Shown: positions 1,115-60,991, counted from the stretch's first letter. The stretch is DNA of 64,000 bases from Verrucomicrobiota bacterium (GCA_050014435.1 JBEKDI010000003.1:27901-91900), one strand, 5' to 3'. Notes: a model not told the origin generated them from the sequence alone. Numbers and translations: made by a program.

Positions 1115-4100
1115 ATGAAGAGGGCACTCTCCGCCCTTGCGGTTTTGCTGCTCTTTGCGGCGCCGGCTGCGGTGCAAGCCCAATACGGTTACCAAACCAA
1201 TCTCGACGGCAGCGTCTATACTTACAGCACAAACACGGACGGCAGCATCTCCTTCGATGGTTACGCGGGCCCCCCGTGGGACGTGACCATTCCAACCAAC
1301 ATCAACGGCCTGCTGGTGACCCGCATCGGGGATTCTGCGTTCATTAATCGCATCAGCCTGACTAACCTCACAATTCCCGGAAGCGTTACCAGCATCGGGG
1401 ACGGTGCGTTTGAATTCTGCCTCAATCTGACCAGCGTCACGATTAGCAACGGCGTCACCGACATCGGCAACGATGCGTTCGAATTCTGCAGCAGCCTGGC
1501 CGGCGTTATGATTCCCGCCAGCGTCACCAACATCGGGGCGGATGTCTTCAGTTACTGCCAAAGCCTGACCGCAATAACGGTGGATACAAATAATTCGTTT
1601 TATAGCAGCGCGGATGGCGTGTTGTTCGACGTGAGCCAAGGCACGCTTGTTGAGTATCCGGACGGCCTGGCCGGAAGTTACACGATTCCGGATGGCGTCA
1701 CCAACATCGCGGAAGACGCGTTCGAATACTGCGGCGGCCTGACCCGCGTGACGATCGCCGACGATGTCACCAGCATCGGGGACAGTGCGTTCGAATACTG
1801 CGCCAGTCTGACGAACGTGATGATCCCCGCCAGCGTCACCAACTTCGGACTGGATGTTTTCGATTACTGCCCGAGTCTGACCGCAATAACGGTGGACACA
1901 AATAATTTGTTTTATAGCAGTGTGGATGGGGTGTTGTTCGACGAGAGCCACAGCACGCTCGTTGTGTATCCGGGAGGCCTGGCCGGAAGCAACACGATTC
2001 CCGGCAGCGTCACCAGCATCGGAGATGGGGCATTCTACAGTTGCACCGGCTTGACCGGCGTCACGATTCCGGTTGGCGTCACCAACATCGGGAATGATGC
2101 GTTCTACGATTGCACCAGTCTGGCCAGCGTCGAGATCCCCGGCAGCGCCACCAGCATCGGGGATCATGTGTTCTTTAATTGCGCCAAGCTGGCCGGCGTC
2201 ACCATCGACAATGGTGTCACCAACATTGGGAGTTATATGTTCGACAATTGCACCAGTCTGACCAATGTGACGATTCCCGGCAGCGTCACCAGCATGGGGA
2301 TTTATGCGTTCGACAATTGCACCAGCCTGACCAATGTGACGATTCCCGGCAGCGTCACCAGCATGGGGGATTATGTGTTTTTCAACTGCACCAGTCTGAC
2401 CGGCGTCACCATTCCCGGCAGCGTCACCAGCATCGGGGACGGTTCATTCTATTTCTGCGCCAGTCTGGCCAGCGTGACGATCAACAACGGCGTCACCAAC
2501 ATCGGAGAAGCGGCGTTCGAATACTGCACCAGTCTGGCCGGAGTCGCCTTCCCCGCCAGCGTCACCAGCGTCGGGAACGATGCGTTCTTCAATTGCACCG
2601 ATCTCACGAACGTTATGATCCCCGCCAGCGTCACCACTATCGGACTGAATGTTTTCGGTTATTGCCCGAGCCTGACCGCAATAAAGGTGGACACAAATAA
2701 TTTGTTTTACAGCAGCGTGAATGGGGTGTTGTTCGACGAGAAGCAGTTCACGCTTGTTGAATATCCGGGCGGCCTGGGCGGAAGCTACACGATTCCCGGC
2801 ACCGTCACCACCGTGGGGGATTATGCGTTCGATGGATGCGGCAACCTGACCAACGTCACGATTCCGGGCAGCGTCGCCAGCATCGGGATTGGCGCGTTCT
2901 TAAACTGTGCCAGCCTGATTAACGTCACGATTTCCGGCAGCGTCACCAACATGGGAGATGGCGCTTTCGAAGAGTGCGCCAGCCTGGCCAGCGTCTATTT
3001 CATGGGTAACGCTCCTTCTGCCGTTGGTGTGAATGAGTTCTATGATGACAACAACGCGGCGGTCTATTATCTGCCTGGCGCCACCGGTTGGAGTTCCAAT
3101 TTTTGGGGTTTCCCGGCCGGTCCTCCAGCCGTGCTGTGGAACCCGCTGATTCAAGCCAGCGGCCCCCGCTTTGGCGTGCAGAGCAATCAATTCGGATTCA
3201 CCATCACCAACACGGCCAACGCCAATCTCACGGTCATGGTGGATGTCTGCACCAATCTGGTCAGCCCCATCTGGTTTCCGCTCCAGATCGTCACGCTCAC
3301 CAACGGTTTGTTCTATTTCAGCGAACCGGTGCAGACGTACAGTTCCGGTTACTTCTACAGTCTCAGTTGGCCCTTTGCGCAATGTGGCACTCTGCAAGTG
3401 ACAATCGCTCCCTCGGACGCTGCAAGCGCAGGAGCGGCGTGGCTGGCGGACGGCGGCCCCTGGCAGCCTGGCGGAGCCATGGTTGAGCTGCCGGCCGGCC
3501 CCCACACCGTCCAATTCAGCAACATCGCCGGATGGAATACGCCCTCAAACCTGGTCGTCACCATTACCAATGGATTTCTGACAACAGCAATGGGAAACTA
3601 CACGGGACAAGGTGGCACCCTGCAAGTGACGATCACTCCCCCGGACGCTGTGAGCGCAGGAGCAGAGTGGCAGGTGGACGGCGGCGCTTGGGAGACCAAC
3701 GGAGCAACGGCCGCTCTCTCGGCAGGCGCTCACACCCTCCAATACAGCAACATCGCCGGATGGAACACGCCCTCAAACCAAATCGTAACCATTACCAATG
3801 GGTATCTGACAATAGCTGCGGGAAACTACACGGGACAATCCAATTACCCATATGAGTACACAGCAAGCGCCGGGGTCATCACCATCACCGGCTACTCCGG
3901 ATCCCGCGGCTTTGTCGCCATTCCACCAACCATCAACGGCCTGCCGGTCACCGGCATTGGACAATACGCGTTCTCAAGCCGCTCCAACCTGACCTGGATC
4001 ACGATTCCCGCCACCATCACAGCCATCGGGAGCCATGCGTTCTCTGACTGCGCCAGCCTGGCAGGCGTTTATTTCTACGGCGGCGCCCCTAGTGTTGATG

Positions 4101-10425: not shown

Positions 10426-11445
10426 TTAGGATTTTGCTGTGGCATTGACGGTTTTTGAACCGGGAAGTTCGGATTTTCGCAGCAACAAGAGCAGCGCGAA
10501 GAAAGGAATCAAGGAGAGGATGAAGAAAATCGGGCCGCCCTTGCGGTGGATGGGCGAATTGATCATGTCCCGGCTGATGCGGACACACAACTCACCGATG
10601 ACGAAGACGCGAAAGCCGTTGCGCAGGATCGCCAGAGGGACCACCACAGTGACCAGCAGGGCGCGCTTCCATCCGGAACGCAAAAACAGCTGACCCGCCA
10701 GAAAACTGGTGATGAGCAACACCATGGTGGAATGGATCCCGCTGCATTCCGGAGCGATTAGCAATGAAAAGCCAGGCAGGTGGAGGATCAGACCCTGGCG
10801 GTCCACCGGCATCATTGCCGCCGTGAGGAACCCGCTGGCGGTGACCGCCGACGTTATCTGGAAGAATGACATCGTCCAATCAAGCATGGCGGACGGGATC
10901 GGGACCATGAAGGCCAGGAACGCTATGGGAAAGGCCAGCAGCCGGGACATTGCGGTCCCAAAAAACGTCAGACAACCCGCCACCACAAACAGCAAATAGG
11001 AAGCGGCCGTAAAGGTCAGATAATCTTCCAGTTGGGATTTCCAGGCGGGATGCGCCGCCCACCTCCAGCCGCCTGGAAAAGCCTCACTCATGAGCACGTC
11101 CCTCGCCGCCCAATAGCGCAGGCAATAGCCGGAATGGGAGGCCCAAGTCCAGCCGATCAGGACCGCAATCCCGCCCAACGCAGCCGCCGCCCCCCATTTC
11201 CAGGACATCCCCGCCTGCCGCGGCAATTCCGGCCGTTTCAACCAGAATAAGTAAAGGCTGATGATCGGAATTAACGGGATGTAGGAGAAAAATTCGTCAT
11301 GCAGCGAATATTGCCCAAGAGCGTAGAGGGGGCGGGCAAAGCAGGCTGACAAAGCCAGGACAAAAAGAATAAATCCCATTGTCCGACGGCGCAACGCGGT
11401 TTCGCCGACGCGCTCGAGCGGAAGTGTCGATGCGGCGGTGGGCAT
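10426..11445 (-). CDS. Exosortase (EpsH/Xrt family)
   Basis: Polytopic membrane protein. The catalytic-Cys motif is LLIAPECSGIHSTMVLL, the conserved Arg motif is LAILRNGFRVFVIG, and the distal His is INSPIHRKGGPIFF. ATG 11445 begins 3 nt after the upstream gene's stop (11448-11450); the longer track ORF would overlap that gene. Confidence 0.85.
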   Translation of the reverse strand: MPTAASTLPLERVGETALRRRTMGFILFVLALSACFARPLYALGQYSLHDEFFSYIPLIPIISLYLFWLKRPELPRQAGMSWKWGAAAALGGIAVLIGWTWASHSGYCLRYWAARDVLMSEAFPGGWRWAAHPAWKSQLEDYLTFTAASYLLFVVAGCLTFFGTAMSRLLAFPIAFLAFMVPIPSAMLDWTMSFFQITSAVTASGFLTAAMMPVDRQGLILHLPGFSLLIAPECSGIHSTMVLLITSFLAGQLFLRSGWKRALLVTVVVPLAILRNGFRVFVIGELCVRISRDMINSPIHRKGGPIFFILSLIPFFALLLLLRKSELPGSKTVNATAKS

Positions 11446-11447
11446 AA

Positions 11448-12734
11448 TCAGGCTTTGAAGACCTGCCCGGGACGGGTCTTGATTGATGCCATGGCATTGC
11501 GGGTATCCACGATGCAGGACGCCCATTTCGCCAGTTCGTTATAGTCGATGCTCTGGTGTTTGGTGGCGATGACCACGAGATCAAAGCTCTTGAGGATCGT
11601 TGCGTCCCACGGCACCGACTTCACTCCAGCCCAGTGCGGATGTTCGCGCGTCGGTTTGATGACCGGGACATAGGGATCGTAATACGAAACCTCCGCCCCG
11701 CGCTCCTTGAACAAGTTCATCAGCACGTAGCTGGGAGACTCGCGGTCATCGTCCACGTCCGCCTTGTAAGCCAGGCCGAGAATCAGGACTTTGGAGCCGT
11801 TGACCGATTTGCGTACGGTGTTGAGGGCGGCCACGCCTTGCAGGACAACATAATCGGGCATGGCGGTGTTGATTTCGCCGGCCAGTTCGATGAACCGCGT
11901 GTTTTGCGCGTACTCGCGCGCCTTCCAGGTGAGATAGAACGGATCGATGGGAATGCAATGCCCGCCCAGGCCGGGCCCGGGATAAAACGGCATGAAACCA
12001 AAGGGCTTCGTCCTGGCCGCGTCGATCACTTCCCAGACATCGATGCCCATGGCGCTGTAAACTACTTTCAATTCGTTCACCAGGGCGATATTGACGCTGC
12101 GGAAGATGTTCTCGGTCAGTTTGGTGGCTTCGGCCACGCGGCAGGAAGAGACCGGCACCAGGGTCTTGATGGCGCGGCCATAGACGGCCTTGGCGCGTTC
12201 CAAACAAGCGGGCGTCAACCCGCCAATGACTTTGGGAATCATCGCCACCTTGCTCTGCGGATTGCCCGGATCCTCGCGTTCCGGAGAAAAGGCCAGATGA
12301 AAATCAACCCCGGCTTTCATGCCTGACCCGGCCTCCAGCACGCCGCGCAAATCCTCGTCCGTTGTCCCCGGGTAGGTCGTGGATTCCAGCACCACCAGCG
12401 TCCCCTTGCGCAGGTGCGGCGCCAGGCTCCGCCCGGTGTCCAGGATGTAGGAAATGTCCGGCTCGCGGTTTTTGTTCAGGGGCGTCGGCACGCAAATGAT
12501 GACCGCCTCCACCTCCTTGACCCGGCTGAAATCAGTCGAGGCGGAAAACTTGCCGCCGTTGACTTCCCGGGCAATGGCCGCAGCTTCGATGTGCTTGATG
12601 TAACTCCTGCCGGCGTTGATGGCTGTGACCTTGGCTTCGTCCACGTCCAGTCCCAGGACCGTGGTGTCGGACCGCGCGAATTGCAAAGACAGCGGCAGTC
12701 CAACGTATCCCAGTCCAACAATCGCAATATTCAT
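11448..12734 (-). CDS. Nucleotide-sugar 6-dehydrogenase (UDP-GlcNAc / UDP-ManNAc dehydrogenase family, WbpA/TviB-like)
   Basis: N-terminal Rossmann motif MNIAIVGLGYVGLPLSLQFA. Family-typical GGHCIPIDP catalytic Cys segment. 428 aa. Confidence 0.85.
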   Translation of the reverse strand: MNIAIVGLGYVGLPLSLQFARSDTTVLGLDVDEAKVTAINAGRSYIKHIEAAAIAREVNGGKFSASTDFSRVKEVEAVIICVPTPLNKNREPDISYILDTGRSLAPHLRKGTLVVLESTTYPGTTDEDLRGVLEAGSGMKAGVDFHLAFSPEREDPGNPQSKVAMIPKVIGGLTPACLERAKAVYGRAIKTLVPVSSCRVAEATKLTENIFRSVNIALVNELKVVYSAMGIDVWEVIDAARTKPFGFMPFYPGPGLGGHCIPIDPFYLTWKAREYAQNTRFIELAGEINTAMPDYVVLQGVAALNTVRKSVNGSKVLILGLAYKADVDDDRESPSYVLMNLFKERGAEVSYYDPYVPVIKPTREHPHWAGVKSVPWDATILKSFDLVVIATKHQSIDYNELAKWASCIVDTRNAMASIKTRPGQVFKA

Positions 12735-12795
12735 ATTCTTGTATATGTCAATTATATGTTTCTTGGTTGTCTTTCCATCAACTTTTTTCCATTTT

Positions 12796-13815
12796 TCACT
12801 TTTTTTCGCTTTTTTTCACTTTTCCGACCCAATCCCGGTTGCTCAAGTACCATTGCACCGTCTCGCGAATGCCAGTCTCGAAAGTGTGCGCGGGGGTCCA
12901 GCCCAATTCCCTTTGTATCTTGCCAGCGTCGATGGCGTAGCGGCGGTCATGGCCGGGCCGGTCCTTGACATAACTGATGAGCCGGCGCGAGTTGCCGCCC
13001 AAGCGCGGGGCCAGCTCGTCCATCAGGTCGCAAATCAGCTCCACGATGCGAATATTGGCCCATTCGTTATGGCCGCCGATGTTGTAGGTCTCGCCGTCGC
13101 GTCCCCGGTTCAGCACCTGCCAGAGGGCCTCGGCGTGGTCGCCGACGTAAAGCCAGTCGCGCACGTTCATGCCGTCGCCATAAACGGGGATGGGCTTGCG
13201 CTGGCACACGCTCTCGATGATGACCGGGATGAGCTTCTCCGGAAACTGGCGGGGGCCGTAATTATTGGAACAATTGGTGGTGACCACGGGCAGGCCGTAA
13301 GTGTGATAATACGAGCGCACCAGCAGATCGCTCGACGCCTTGCTCGCGGAATAGGGCGAATTCGGCGCATACGGCGTGCTTTCGGTAAAGAAGCCCGACG
13401 GCCCCAGGCTGCCGTAGACCTCGTCGGTCGAAACGTGATGGAACCGTTTTCCGGCGAAGTTATTGCCCCATGCGCCGCGCACGGCCTCCAATAGATGGAA
13501 CGTGCCGACGATGTTGGTCTGGATAAAATCGCCCGGCCCGGCGATGGACCGGTCCACATGGGATTCCGCGGCCAAATGCAGCACATGAGTGATGGCTTGC
13601 CGTTGCACCACCTCGCAGATGGCGTCCTTGTCGCGCAGGTCCGTCTTCTCGAAGACATATTTCGCATGGCCGGCCAGCCCCTCGAGATTCTCCAGATGCC
13701 CCGCATAGGTCAGGCAATCCACATTGACCAGCCGCTGGATGCCGGCATTGCCAATAATATGATGGATCAGGTTCGACCCGATGAATCCGGCTCCCCCTGT
13801 GACAAGCAAGTTCAT
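12796..13815 (-). CDS. rfbB: dTDP-glucose 4,6-dehydratase
   Basis: [16 protein letters not shown]..., [15 protein letters not shown] (YxxxK), [17 protein letters not shown] 13815 overlaps the upstream stop in an ATGA arrangement. Confidence 0.9.
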
Positions 13816-52822: not shown

Positions 52823-55075
52823 CTAAAGCTCCTGGTGAAGCCGTCGCGGCAGGTAAGAACGGTTTTTGTTCAGGACGATTCCCACGTTCGTTTTCGTCTC
52901 CGAGAGCATGGATGCGGCGCGTTTGGCAACCTCGCGATCGGTCTTCTCAGACTCCACCACCAGCAGCACCATATCCATGAACCGGGCCAGCTTGGGCGTG
53001 ATGCTGATCTGGCTGACGGGCGGCATGTCGAAAATAATGTAATCGAAATCGCTGGCCTTCATCTTGGGCAGCAAATGATTGAAGCGTTTGGGCAGGATGC
53101 GGGGCAGATTGGAGTCGTTTTCCTGCTCCTTGGCCACGTAGAGATTGTCCTGCACCATGGCGCCCTCGCGCTTCTCCTTTTCCAACACCTCATCCAGGCC
53201 GCAAGCCAGCTTCCCCTTGTAGAAGTGATGGGCCTCGCCCTCGCGAACGTTCATATTGACAAGCAATACATTGCCTTCGCCCGTTTCGGAAAGGCTTGAA
53301 GCCAGGCCGACGGCCGTGCTGGTGACACCGGCGCCCGCGCCACAGCTTGTCACCGCCACCAATTTGGGCTTGTGCGTCAGGTTAATCATCTCAAAGTAGG
53401 TCATCAGCCGGTCGCGCAGGGTTTCGTAAAAAGGCTGCAAGGCGTGGCTTTTCTCCCACACCGCAAGCGCGCTGCCCGCGGGCGGCGCGGCCTGCGCGTC
53501 GCCCGCTTCTCCGGCCTTGCCGGGCGGAAGCGCCCTCTTTTTTTCCTCCCTCCGGGCCTGGCGTCCGCCCGTTCCGTTTGTGGCGGGAATAGAGATGAAA
53601 AAGGGCAGGCCGAGCGTGGCCTGGACCTCCAACGGATGCTTGAGCGAGCGATCCAGATACAGCTCAATCAGGAACGGCAGCCCAAAAGCAAAGGCAAGAC
53701 CTCCAAACAAAATCCCCGCAACCATTTTCATGAGTTTGACCGTGTTCTGTGCCGGGGGAGTGGGGTATTCCACCACGTTGATATTGGAATTGCCCAGTGC
53801 CTCATTGGCGCGGCTTTCTTCCAGCCGTCTCGAATAGTAGGAAAATTCGGCCGACCGCAACTCCTTGTCCCGCTGCAATTGCGAAATAGTGCCTTCCTGT
53901 CCGCTCATCAGCTCGGCGTTGCTCCGCACCTCGGCCAGTTCATTGGTGAGAACCTTGATCTTCGCCGCCAGGGCGTCTGCTTTCCTGATTTCCTCGTTCA
54001 GCGCAACCATCGGATCCTCGGCGGAGGTGGCCTGCGTTCCCGTTGCCCTCCTCTCGATGGATTTCATGGCCGCGAGGCCGGGATATTTGGTCTCCAACTG
54101 CCTCTTCAGAGCCTCAGCGCGGGCGACTTCACCCTGCTTGGTTTGAACAAGGGAATTGTTGGTGGTATAGCGCAAAAGCAGCTCCTGCTCCTGCGATTGA
54201 AAGTCCCTCAATTGTTGGCAAATCTTCTGGTAAGCATCAACGCTGTCGGGGGGGGGCGGCGCCGCCAGATCGGCGGAAGCCGCGGCGTTGGTGGCAACGG
54301 CTGTGGCTGCTTTGGGAAGAAGATTCTGCATGTCGCGTATCGTTTGCTGGGAGCCGGCCCATTCCGCTTCGGCGTCGTATATCTGCTGCTGGATTCTTGC
54401 TGTCATGTCTCCCAATGATTTTTTACTGTCATCAAGCGATATGATGTTGGCCCTGAATTTTGCCTCGCGCAATTGGGTTTCGGTGTCCTCCAATTTATGT
54501 TTGACATCATCGGTTGCCCGCATCAAAAACTCGTTCCACTCCGGGCGGTGGATCTCGTTGTGCCTTTTTAGATAAGTCTCAATGATCTGCCCCAGGATCG
54601 GTTGCACCATGTCCGGATCCGGGTGAAAGAAGATGAGAGTAATCACGTCGCTGCTTTTTCCCACCTCAGGCATCAGGCCCTTTCTAACCAGGCTGGCGGC
54701 CTGGGTCCGGTTGGTCCCGCCCCCCGCTCTGGCCAGTATCTTGGCGGGGGTCAGAACATCCGCCACGGTATTGGCCAGGTCCAGGCTGGTCAGAATCTCC
54801 ACCTCGGAATTAATGATGGTCTCCCCGCGCGATTCCGTGGAGGTCGATTGAGACTCATTTGCAGTTTGGTCCGGCGGTTTGGTTTCTTTGACATACTTGA
54901 TGAGCAACTTGGCTTCCGACTGGTAGGGCACGGGGTAGAGGAACCGCGTACAGATGGCGGCCGCGACCGCCACCAGCGACAAAATAAGGATGAGCCATTT
55001 GTGCCGAAAGAGAATGTAATAGACATCGCCCAAGGTAAGGCTGGGCGATGGCGGGGGGGCTTGCTTTGGAGTCAT
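52823..55075 (-). CDS. Wzc/GumC-like polysaccharide co-polymerase (PCP-2a layout) with degenerate BY-kinase-like C-terminal domain
   Basis: Wzz-type N-terminus (TM1 WLILILSLVAVAAAI, then YQSEAKLLIKY), a long coiled-coil periplasmic region, and TM2 (VAGILFGGLAFAFGLPFLI). The C-terminal P-loop-like domain reads VAVTSCGAGAGVTST...VLLVNMNVRE...YIIFDMPP. Confidence 0.8.
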   Translation of the reverse strand: MTPKQAPPPSPSLTLGDVYYILFRHKWLILILSLVAVAAAICTRFLYPVPYQSEAKLLIKYVKETKPPDQTANESQSTSTESRGETIINSEVEILTSLDLANTVADVLTPAKILARAGGGTNRTQAASLVRKGLMPEVGKSSDVITLIFFHPDPDMVQPILGQIIETYLKRHNEIHRPEWNEFLMRATDDVKHKLEDTETQLREAKFRANIISLDDSKKSLGDMTARIQQQIYDAEAEWAGSQQTIRDMQNLLPKAATAVATNAAASADLAAPPPPDSVDAYQKICQQLRDFQSQEQELLLRYTTNNSLVQTKQGEVARAEALKRQLETKYPGLAAMKSIERRATGTQATSAEDPMVALNEEIRKADALAAKIKVLTNELAEVRSNAELMSGQEGTISQLQRDKELRSAEFSYYSRRLEESRANEALGNSNINVVEYPTPPAQNTVKLMKMVAGILFGGLAFAFGLPFLIELYLDRSLKHPLEVQATLGLPFFISIPATNGTGGRQARREEKKRALPPGKAGEAGDAQAAPPAGSALAVWEKSHALQPFYETLRDRLMTYFEMINLTHKPKLVAVTSCGAGAGVTSTAVGLASSLSETGEGNVLLVNMNVREGEAHHFYKGKLACGLDEVLEKEKREGAMVQDNLYVAKEQENDSNLPRILPKRFNHLLPKMKASDFDYIIFDMPPVSQISITPKLARFMDMVLLVVESEKTDREVAKRAASMLSETKTNVGIVLNKNRSYLPRRLHQEL

Positions 55076-55080
55076 ACGTT

Positions 55081-55217
55081 ATAAAATGGAATATTTCACG
55101 ATAAATGGAATATTTCACGATAAATGGAATATTTCACGATAAATGGAATATTTCACGATAAATGGAATATTTCAGGAAATTTCAGGATATTTCAGGATAT
55201 TTCACGATAAATGGGGG
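55081..55217. repeat. AT-rich tandem repeat array: 19-bp unit x5 plus three 10-bp half-units
   Basis: Plus-strand unit ATAAATGGAATATTTCACG. Copies: 55081-55100 (one extra A), 55101-55119, 55120-55138 and 55139-55157 (all three perfect), and 55158-55176 (1 mismatch). Half-units aaatttcagg, atatttcagg and atatttcacg span 55177-55206, and a truncated unit starts at 55207. The array fills the whole intergenic gap. The upstream stop codon (55202-55204) is inside it and the Wzc-like ATG (55073-55075) is 5 nt from it. Confidence 0.95.
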
Positions 55218-56293
55218 TATAGAATCCGGCCGGCCAGACGCAGCAGCGGCGGCGGCAGCAGCGCAAAAACCCGGTTAAACCAGCCTTCCGCGCGGTCCGC
55301 GTCGCGGACAAATTGCCCCGCTGAGAAATCATACCGGCAATATGCCACGGTTTCCTCGGATGCACCCAACGAAAGTTTAAAACGCCGCAGACCTTCGTTG
55401 GCCAAGGAAGTGCGGCCCAAGTGCAATTCCGCAGCCCCCCGATCCGCATAGTGCTTCATGGCGGCCCACATCATCAGGTTGTTCGGCCTCATTTGTTGAA
55501 AGGAGTAGTCAGACGCTCCAAATTTGTAGAGCGCCCGCCGGTCATGACAAAAAAAAACCCCCGCCGCCAGCGGCTGGTCCTTCAACCGCGCGGTTGCAAC
55601 AAATCCCTGGCCCCCCTCGATGATGTGGCGCTGAATGCTCCGGAAAAATCGGAACGGTTGCGGCGGCAGCCCGTGACGGCGGCGCGTCCGGCAATGCAGC
55701 GCGTAAAAAGTTTCCATCGCCTCCAAACTGCCGCTGAAATCGACCCGCAAGCCCGCTGCCTCGGCTTTGCGGATACCGCGCCGGATGGCGCTGTCCAGCC
55801 GGTTAAAAAGCCCGTCGGCTCCGGCGGAGAGATCGATCACATGGGCATAAAACCCCAGTGAAGGTGACGCGCCAACCCAACCTTCACCCGGGCTTCGGCA
55901 CTCAAAATATTTCCATCGTCGTTCATGGCCCGAGTCCATGCCCGCCTCATACAGAGACCTGGCGTCCAGCTTCCCACTATTGAGCGCGGGACAGAAATCC
56001 GTGAAAGGCAGTGAAACACCGCGGCGCCCTGTCCACGGGCTGGAGACTTCCATGATGGGAACCAACCCTGCGAGTTGCCGGCCTTCGAAACGGCAGATAT
56101 AAACCGGCCTGTGTCCGTAAGTTTGCTGAAGCACGCGCGCCCAGCCGCTTCCATGGAAAATGGATGCCCGCGGATGGGCCGCCAACAGCGAATCCCATTC
56201 CGGGCATTGCAAGGGATCAACCACGACGGGCGCCCCAGAGGGGCACGGGTCGGAGGTTCGCCTGGCTTTTTCATCTTGGGCCGGCGAAATCAT
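55202..56293 (-). CDS. FemAB-related / BioF2-like acetyltransferase-fold protein (second copy in locus)
   Basis: RPNNLMMWAAMKHYADRGAAELHLGRTSLANEGLRRFKLSLGA is typical of the FemAB-related, PEP-CTERM-locus family. ATG 56293 overlaps the upstream stop (ATGA). Confidence 0.65.
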   Translation of the reverse strand: MISPAQDEKARRTSDPCPSGAPVVVDPLQCPEWDSLLAAHPRASIFHGSGWARVLQQTYGHRPVYICRFEGRQLAGLVPIMEVSSPWTGRRGVSLPFTDFCPALNSGKLDARSLYEAGMDSGHERRWKYFECRSPGEGWVGASPSLGFYAHVIDLSAGADGLFNRLDSAIRRGIRKAEAAGLRVDFSGSLEAMETFYALHCRTRRRHGLPPQPFRFFRSIQRHIIEGGQGFVATARLKDQPLAAGVFFCHDRRALYKFGASDYSFQQMRPNNLMMWAAMKHYADRGAAELHLGRTSLANEGLRRFKLSLGASEETVAYCRYDFSAGQFVRDADRAEGWFNRVFALLPPPLLRLAGRILYPHLS

Positions 56294-60147: not shown

Positions 60148-60726
60148 CTAACTCGCGGCGGCAACGTCCGCCGGGTCGCTCGTTGCCAGCAAAGGCAGAA
60201 GGTCGGCCACCCGCCGGTTCTCCAGCTTCAACGATTTTCGATCCACTTCTGTCAAAGTTACCCTGCCCAAGAAATCCAGCAGTATTTGTACCCTTTGCCC
60301 CGCTGATAATGCCCGCACCACCATTCCTGAGAATCCCAGGAAAGCCCCCTCGACAATGGTCACTTCAGCCCCAGGCACAACACCGTCTTGCACAATCATA
60401 GGCTGCTCAGACTCAAACCATTGCCTCAATTCATCTATCGCGCTGTCCGGCACCGCCGGAATCTTCTTCCCGAAATGCACCAGGCTGCTAATCCCCGTGA
60501 CGTGGCGGATGTCATCCACCCCATTCTCAAGAATGCAACGAACAAAAATGTAACAGGGGAAAAGCGGTTCGACAACCCGCATCACGCCCCGCCGCGTGGC
60601 CCGCTCCAATCGCAAACGGGGATGGAAAACTTCCAAGCCCAAATTCTTGGTGATATTGGCCGCCGCGATATGCTCGTGCTTCGGCTTGGTTCTTGCGCAA
60701 TACCATGCTGGATTTGAAATATGCAT
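60148..60726 (-). CDS. RfaH/NusG-paralog transcription antiterminator (UpxY-like position at head of the locus)
   Basis: WYCARTKPKHEHIAAANI, EPLFPCYIFVRC, GISSLVHFG..PAVPDSAIDELR, and the KOW-like PGAEVTIVEGAFLGFSGMV parallel E. coli RfaH segment by segment. ATG 60726 is used (the track start is TTG 60741). Confidence 0.8.
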   Translation of the reverse strand: MHISNPAWYCARTKPKHEHIAAANITKNLGLEVFHPRLRLERATRRGVMRVVEPLFPCYIFVRCILENGVDDIRHVTGISSLVHFGKKIPAVPDSAIDELRQWFESEQPMIVQDGVVPGAEVTIVEGAFLGFSGMVVRALSAGQRVQILLDFLGRVTLTEVDRKSLKLENRRVADLLPLLATSDPADVAAAS

Positions 60727-60962
60727 CAATTCGTAAGGCAAATCCGACTTGTGCCAATACTAGTTTTTAACTGAGCCCGCACCCGCCCGTTGTCCCTCAT
60801 CCCCCGTCCGGCCGCTCTGAAGCCACGTGGCACCTCTGTCGCAATTCATAACAATTTTGCTACACAGCAACATTAATAGCCATAATGACTACAGTATATA
60901 AAACTGCTCGTCAAGTGCTTTTTGCACTGTTCCGTTCGAATTATTCCAACAATCGACACAGT

Positions 60963-60991
60963 AATTTACAGCAGCATCCATACCATGTCAA
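60963..60991 (-). promoter_or_regulatory. Candidate sigma70-type promoter for the EPS locus
   Basis: The minus strand reads TTGACA (60991-60986), a 17-nt spacer, then TAAATT (60968-60963). It begins 6 nt after the gnd stop and ~235 nt upstream of the RfaH-like ATG. Confidence 0.3.

Follow-up and report, generated by a model that had tools for sequence, protein, structure and literature searches.

A strain-variable 19-bp tandem repeat, probably young and lineage-specific, in the spacer ahead of a polysaccharide co-polymerase gene of an uncultured Verrucomicrobium

MIRUs are intercistronic repeats found inside operons; they overlap both stop and start codons, vary between strains and are dispersed over about 40 loci in units of 46-101 bp. 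These mycobacterial MIRU-VNTR loci were reportedly described by Supply et al. in 1997/2000. Contingency loci, the phase-variable SSRs of Haemophilus, Neisseria and Campylobacter, are built from units of 1-9 bp in many copies and show proven high-frequency reversible switching. Functional precedents include promoter tandem repeats of Mycobacterium tuberculosis that vary in copy number (PMC12817950) and SSR-dependent phase variation in the 5'-UTR of Haemophilus genes (PMC12721329). In Planctomycetota, non-coding indels at intergenic tandem repeats were recorded in long-read MAGs from a lake and attributed to polymerase slippage (PMC9426551). Plasmid and phage iterons are direct repeats of 17-22 bp that occur in 4-5 copies in an AT-rich setting.

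Here we analyse a tandem array immediately upstream of a co-polymerase gene in a stretch of 64,000 nucleotides (64 kb, hereafter the window) from a Verrucomicrobiota bacterium. The array belongs to a known category, the bacterial intergenic VNTRs, and its closest anatomical analogy is the MIRU-VNTR: in both, head-to-tail units lie between co-oriented genes of an operon and overlap the upstream stop codon, and copies vary between strains while the flanks are conserved, presumably by slippage. The present array differs in that its unit is 19 bp long, sits at a single locus in the sequence searched, originates from its own flank and is found in one uncultured species. With the contingency loci it shares a repeat tract placed immediately 5' of a surface-polysaccharide gene, where copy number could alter expression post-transcriptionally via the 5' leader; here, however, units of 19 and 10 bp occur in 2-5 copies, and the organism lives in the environment and is not a pathogen. 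The Planctomycetota indels resemble it in coming from the related PVC superphylum, from natural populations and from intergenic tandem repeats, but they form a genome-wide statistic, whereas here one locus is resolved with the origin of its unit and two alleles. The likeness to iterons lies in unit length, copy number and AT-rich setting; unlike them, the array has no adjacent rep gene, lies in a conserved chromosomal operon, is missing from relatives and takes its unit from neighbouring coding sequence. A role as an iteron or replication origin was ruled out on the lack of a rep gene and on the operon context; it gave no meaningful match in plasmid or viral collections.

The operon is a polysaccharide operon of 18 genes on the minus strand (window 39472-62807). 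It begins with an RfaH/UpxY-like NusG paralogue, followed by Bac_transf, GFO/IDH/MocA oxidoreductase, hexapeptide acyltransferase, DegT aminotransferase and FemAB/GNAT genes, the array, the co-polymerase gene, and then glycosyltransferase and further genes. From the oxidoreductase gene on, and leaving the array aside, neighbouring genes overlap or are 12-61 nt apart; only two longer gaps, of about 80 and 220 nt, occur at the operon head, and a sigma70-like TTGACA-N17-TAAATT lies upstream of the NusG paralogue gene (about 60953-60981). The FemAB-family protein matches the XrtA/PEP-CTERM-associated FemAB model TIGR03019 at 1e-31, under the cutoff, and several operon proteins give sub-threshold matches to pepcterm_TyrKin, pepcterm_ChnLen and pepcterm_femAB (XrtA/PEP-CTERM-associated). 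An exosortase (EpsH) gene and a gene for a large TPR protein adjoin the UDP-glucose dehydrogenase gene (window 10426-12734, L173), and the window appears to encode a PEP-CTERM/exosortase-type EPS system. The host is a Limisphaerales-like uncultured soil or peat Verrucomicrobium (Limisphaerales/Verrucomicrobiae type); MAGs from peat and soil are the source of its relatives.

The Walker A motif of the co-polymerase, in its P-loop-like C-terminal domain, reads GAGAGVTS, without the lysine, and its C-terminus has a single Y and no tyrosine cluster; all matches to kinase/Wzc NCBIfam models are far under cutoff. Because the Walker A lysine and the C-terminal tyrosine cluster, the marks of PCP-2a, are both missing, the protein is GumC/ExoP-like rather than a bona fide Wzc kinase, contrary to the 'Wzc-like' label given to it in a first-pass annotation of the window, and to judge from its residues it is probably not an autokinase. 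One orthologue carries the name 'GumC family protein'. The ATG at 55075 is backed by conserved M-x-P-K-Q N-termini among relatives, and the JGI gene caller places the start 14 codons downstream, at a TTG (736 aa). A Shine-Dalgarno (SD) sequence was found upstream of none of the 18 operon genes (starts listed from L171), and it is also lacking in relatives without the array. The earlier remark that the array leaves no room for an RBS was thus right about the missing RBS and wrong about the array as its cause, and the argument is moot, since no operon gene has a Shine-Dalgarno sequence. The class of RfaH/UpxY-like NusG proteins supports SD-less operon expression in E. coli.

The array itself is real, on the agreement of TRF and a shuffle test, and it runs on the coding (minus) strand from a partial unit through the last unit over window positions 55076-55214 (Table 1). 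TRF reported a 19-bp repeat of 4.8 copies at 100% identity (55084-55174, score 182) and an overlapping 10-bp repeat of 4.3 copies at 90% identity (55167-55209). In the register used earlier, the 19-mer CGTGAAATATTCCATTTAT has five matches, three of them perfect, one with one mismatch and one with two, as had been described, against 0.03 expected from shuffles. In the same coding-strand layout the edge of the array lies 5 nt from the ATG of the co-polymerase gene and the stop codon of the FemAB-family gene lies within the first repeat, both as first noted; the TGA recurs in each repeat unit. Copies of a unit well over 10 bp long are thus arranged head to tail, as in a VNTR or minisatellite. The gap measures 126 bp at 26.2% GC, again in agreement with the first reading, and is the most AT-rich 120-bp stretch in the 64-kb window; the GC content of the locus, for which that reading gave spot counts of up to about 70%, is in fact 50-61% with a mean of 56%. 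Direct repeats recur at about 10- and 19-bp periodicity, the A/T tracts are phased at about 9.5-10 bp, and each unit holds the 6-bp palindromic core AATATT. A MIRU-style stop/start relay of small ORFs was considered and rejected: the only ORFs are GTG-initiated, of 6-19 codons, and form no consistent relay. In both alleles described below, the last of them (VKYSIL, then stop) stops 3 nt short of the ATG.

Table 1. Positions of the array, its flanking and operon-head genes (window coordinates), and of arrays in Opitutales-like loci (coordinates of each locus)
Feature	Position	Strand	Basis
First partial repeat CCATTTATCG, equal to the final FemAB-family codons (..P H L S)	55205..55214	-	sequence
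TGA stop of the upstream FemAB-family gene, inside the first repeat	55202..55204	-	ORF list and sequence
Three 10-bp half-units TGAAATATCC, TGAAATATCC, TGAAATTTCC	55175..55204	-	TRF 10 bp x 4.3
Four perfect 19-bp units TGAAATATTCCATTTATCG, the copy-number-variable part	55099..55174	-	TRF, allele comparison
Terminal degenerate unit TGAAATATTCCATTTTATAACGT, abutting the ATG (55075)	55076..55098	-	sequence, alignment with relatives' spacer
Co-polymerase, 750 aa, Wzz N-terminal domain and degenerate P-loop domain	52823..55075	-	Pfam, NCBIfam, translation
FemAB/GNAT (Acetyltransf_6) family protein, 363 aa	55202..56293	-	Pfam, NCBIfam, gene calls in L001/L171
RfaH/UpxY-like NusG paralogue, first gene of the operon	60148..60726	-	NCBIfam, gene calls
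Opitutales-like array, L058	5912-5984		
Opitutales-like array, L150 (= L152 958-1142)	2779-2963		
Opitutales-like array, L111	1529-1574		
Opitutales-like array, L117	1414-1448		
Opitutales-like array, L129	1-135		
Opitutales-like array, L036	5336-5746		
Opitutales-like array, L161	2764-2794		

The locus was recovered from further public assemblies through exact-protein look-ups, which gave two alleles in three full assemblies, with copy numbers taken from the assembled contigs. JGI 3300038619 Ga0427940_0000185 (109 kb; L166/L171) is 100% identical to the window, of which it is evidently the source, and has four full units and one terminal unit, and the same 5-unit structure is present in an independent sample, JGI 3300041415 Ga0439232_0005183 (L172). 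The ENA contig ERZ27249965 k141_1234380 (27.7 kb; L001/L167/L170) has one full and one terminal unit, while one flank agrees with the window at 100% identity for 7.7 kb and the other at 99.94% for 15.7 kb. The 57 bp (3 x 19) by which the 5-unit and 2-unit alleles differ are the sole indel in 23 kb, and shorten the spacer from 126 to 69 nt (126 - 69 = 57 = 3 x 19) by whole units; both alleles carry the same three 10-bp half-units. Copy number therefore differs while the flanks are conserved, as compared between assemblies, and the 'copy-number-variable' half of the slippage-prone switch proposed in the first-pass annotation finds direct support: five units in two JGI assemblies against two in the ENA assembly, in sequence otherwise 99.94-100% identical. 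Logan contigs (k=31) of SRR13021853 and SRR7027738 start or stop exactly at the branching 31-mers of the array. By de Bruijn graph logic these 31-mers would branch only if full units number two or more or if alleles are mixed; the breaks are compatible with mixed alleles inside a sample and are no proof thereof. The spacers of both alleles are multiples of three (window 55076-55201, 126 nt; L170 7664-7732, 69 nt), that of most relatives is 27 nt, and with a 19-bp unit the frame of the spacer is kept only by three-unit steps; chance could account for this (p about 1/3), as could a concealed constraint on frame.

The junction was read or aligned in about fifteen of 160 related loci fetched. The main set (L086, L175, L004, L005, L087, L091, L088, L035, L089, L006/L090, L007, L011 and L092) has co-polymerases 51-83% identical to that of the window, the closest being L086/L175 at 83%, L004 at 81% and L005/L087/L091 at 76%; L009 and L026, which are more divergent and have less securely estimated starts, were also included. 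At the main-set junctions the array is missing: the FemAB-family gene lies directly upstream, and the spacer is 18-27 nt long and without repeat. The FemAB-family gene is also upstream in L009 and L026, with a spacer nominally <18 nt and no repeat, and TRF found no array at the co-polymerase junction of any of these relatives. L008 keeps the gene order, but its spacer is longer, at about 120 nt, and free of repeats; in L065 another gene lies upstream of the co-polymerase. In the alignment (A1) the array is a pure insertion. The end of the FemAB-family gene ahead of it, CCCCCATTTATCGTGA, is essentially invariant in relatives, and the whole spacer of L086/L175, TAACCCATTATATCCCCT (TGA-ATAACCCATTATATCCCCT-ATG), aligns to the terminal degenerate unit of the window. 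Read as CCATTTATCGTGAAATATT, the 19-bp unit consists of the last codons of the FemAB-family gene, its stop and the first bases of the spacer, and it is bracketed by the microhomology CCATTTAT (gene end) / CCATTTTAT (spacer). From this we infer that the first partial repeat, CCATTTATCG, served as template for the repeat unit.

These comparisons suggest how the array may have arisen. In the ancestral junction a pair of short direct repeats would have stood at a distance of 19 bp, CCATTTAT at the end of the gene and CCATTTTAT in the spacer; slipped-strand mispairing or a microhomology-mediated duplication between them would have produced the 19-bp unit, which could then have expanded and contracted, and the 10-bp sub-repeat may have been born by the same kind of duplication. 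Expansion appears recent because the four units are perfectly identical. An intermediate relative (83-100% identity) with an intact junction, sought in order to date the array, was not found among the loci fetched; in P0033 (87% identity) the contig begins inside the gene and the junction is not covered. Because copy number varies, relatives lack the array and the unit is copied from the upstream gene end, we read it as a variable repeat of recent origin rather than a conserved control element: a lineage-specific, minisatellite-type VNTR made by slippage in the FemAB/co-polymerase intercistronic spacer and not conserved as a regulator or RNA element. We give this reading a probability of about 0.75.

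Other repeats occur in the window and in related loci. A second AT-rich array (12792-12823; 10 bp x 3.2, coding strand AAGTGAAAAA) sits in the 61-nt gap between the epimerase/dehydratase and UDP-glucose dehydrogenase genes, with TTGATG-N19-TATAAT following shortly after it; within the window it comes second in AT-richness, it has a GTGAAA core in common with the main array, and its gap is also 61 nt in JGI 3300041415, the one assembly compared. Elsewhere in the window (1382-2995 and 3380-3838) there are about nine in-frame copies of a 69-bp (23-aa) repeat with higher-order periods of 207/312 bp, and a 228-bp x 2 repeat; these repeats look like a gene for a leucine-rich-repeat/BspA-like surface protein. 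Many more distant, Opitutales-like loci have unrelated 7-8-bp tandem arrays in the intergenic DNA around wzc, which recall the STRR heptamers of cyanobacteria. Arrays reach the wzc ATG in L058 (TTTTCCGA x 9), L150/L152 (TTTCCCGA) and L111 (CACCGCT), lie just 3' of wzc in L017, L058, L111, L129, L157, L161 and L162, and have CCGCTCA, GCCTCCT, GGAGTCA and others as further units. The larger indels between the near-identical pairs L036/L136 and L161/L162 fall mostly in array-bearing regions. In the array nearest the wzc ATG, C exceeds G on the sense strand in 9/9 lineages, by raw counts uncorrected for background composition. Tandem arrays are thus common in the intergenic DNA of Verrucomicrobia polysaccharide loci, where they behave as VNTRs, and the present case is therefore less exceptional.

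That assemblers created the array or its copy-number difference is highly improbable. The sources are short-read metagenome assemblies, in which tandem repeats are error-prone, the Logan contigs do break within the array, and the 2-copy allele could in principle be an assembler's choice of path through a mixed population. An identical 5-unit structure was nevertheless obtained from two independent JGI samples, and the Logan contigs break at precisely the points where a genuine array of at least three units should break them. At 91 bp the periodic part fits inside the final k (141) of the ENA MEGAHIT contig, so that collapse is an unlikely origin of the 2-copy allele; 150-nt reads, too, exceed this length. 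Repeated binding sites for a regulator or nucleoid protein had been offered as another reading, to which we add bent UP-like DNA; either would create or modulate an internal wzc promoter. The direct repeats of about 10 and 19 bp, the AATATT core, the phased A/T tracts and the position at the most AT-rich spot of the window all lend this some colour; so does the array of AAGTGAAAAA near the TATAAT upstream of the UDP-glucose dehydrogenase gene, by which phased A-tract repeats upstream of genes recur in the genome. Against it, the orthologous junction of every relative examined lacks the array (the closest at 83% and 81%). The unit was copied from coding sequence and a stop, which accounts for its letters without a binding motif, and no -35/-10 pair is present: a sigma70 promoter scan of 54500-55800 returned no sites, and four terminator-like matches, all weak, lie outside the array. 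The tight ancestral operon junction also leaves no room for a promoter. We consider binding sites at such a promoter improbable, although given its AT-richness and phased tracts the array may have some role at the DNA level (bending, protein binding or a cryptic promoter). Nor was the motif met elsewhere: at up to three mismatches, scans of the 64-kb window, of a further 10 kb or so of flanking sequence and of 1.6 Mb from related loci yielded no further copy of the unit, an exact double unit gave no match in either the genome or the metagenome contig collection, and a single unit gave none in the viral contig collection. A plasmid blastn of the array gave one irrelevant 44-bp match, in Leptospira. 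The possibility that the 19-mer is a dispersed repeat, raised at the outset with a search of other sequence, thus found no copy beyond the array in the sequence fetched, and MIRU-like dispersal over many loci is not seen within what was searched. A mobile-element scar was ruled out, the unit being derived from the local flank. A structured RNA element, such as a riboregulator or processing site repeated along a polycistronic transcript, would agree with transcription of the array within the operon, as gene order and spacing imply, and with the short self-complementary core of each unit. The 186-nt sense RNA of the 5-copy allele, however, is no more stable when folded than its shuffles (MFE -15.9 kcal/mol, z = +0.56) and has an almost unpaired centroid, an Rfam search of the array gave no match at E <= 1, and no stable conserved fold or covariance-model match emerged; since the array is not conserved, no covariation can exist. 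This reading, also among those first proposed, is extremely improbable.

There is more to be said for a copy-number-dependent tuner of expression, a contingency locus or 'volume control' in which selected changes in unit number would set the amount of co-polymerase and so polysaccharide chain length or export. On the main VNTR reading as well, the array, transcribed inside the polycistronic mRNA, would replace a spacer of 18-27 nt by 69 or 126 nt of untranslated, unstructured, G-poor and AU-rich RNA, and any effect on the co-polymerase would be graded, via spacer length. Longer spacing could uncouple SD-independent initiation from termination of the upstream cistron, so that translational coupling by termination-reinitiation would be lost; the spacer could provide an unstructured standby region for SD-independent initiation; or the naked RNA that it presents could suffice for Rho loading and hence for polarity, which the RfaH/UpxY-like antiterminator encoded by the first gene of the operon would counter. 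For the tuner, tandem cryptic extended -10-like elements (TGaAATATT per unit) could be a further route. Copy number does vary among near-identical strains, and the array immediately precedes the start codon of a gene of dosage-sensitive type, in an SD-less operon whose first gene encodes an RfaH-like NusG paralogue. The RNA of the spacer is unstructured, with 9.5% G, 16.7% C, a C/G of 1.75 and 20 YC dimers, and its G fraction is the lowest among 78-nt windows of the operon; an untranslated length of 69-126 nt is within the range that Rho needs. Unrelated arrays abut the ATG of the wzc orthologue independently in other Verrucomicrobia lineages (L058, L150/L152, L111), and tuning of expression by repeat copy number is documented elsewhere (PMC12817950, PMC12721329). 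On the other side, there are two alleles only, sister species without the array manage with a spacer of 18-27 nt, at 17%, C is scarcer than expected of a Rho-loading site, the scan for sigma70-like promoters came up empty, and the arrays of other lineages occupy many intergenic positions and not that of wzc specifically. We therefore regard selected tuning as conceivable and unlikely. The array may be close to neutral, and because sister species do without it and two alleles are known, near-neutrality or a modest graded effect would be more likely than a dedicated switch. In its widest form the idea is that independently born, G-poor arrays abutting the co-polymerase ATG are recurrent, selectable and copy-number-tunable untranslated spacers in Verrucomicrobia polysaccharide operons, which would set initiation and/or Rho polarity in SD-less operons under RfaH/UpxY-like NusG paralogues; we hold this generalization to be quite doubtful.

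As a young, lineage-specific VNTR, the locus offers a clean, resolved case of the birth of a bacterial minisatellite, in which direct repeats around a stop codon appear to have led to the duplication of 19 bp and its expansion, and natural populations of this uncultured soil Verrucomicrobium supply two alleles. The array is usable as a strain marker for this population, and it explains trouble encountered by assemblers and gene callers alike, namely the breaks of the Logan contigs and the JGI co-polymerase start 14 codons late. If untranslated spacers are tunable in this way, the dosage of the co-polymerase, and hence the chain length of the polymer, would be heritable yet rapidly adjustable. 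Should spacer length indeed tune the co-polymerase, repeat-mediated 'volume control' of surface polysaccharides would extend from host-adapted pathogens to free-living PVC bacteria, and would there be tied to SD-independent translation and RfaH-type antitermination.
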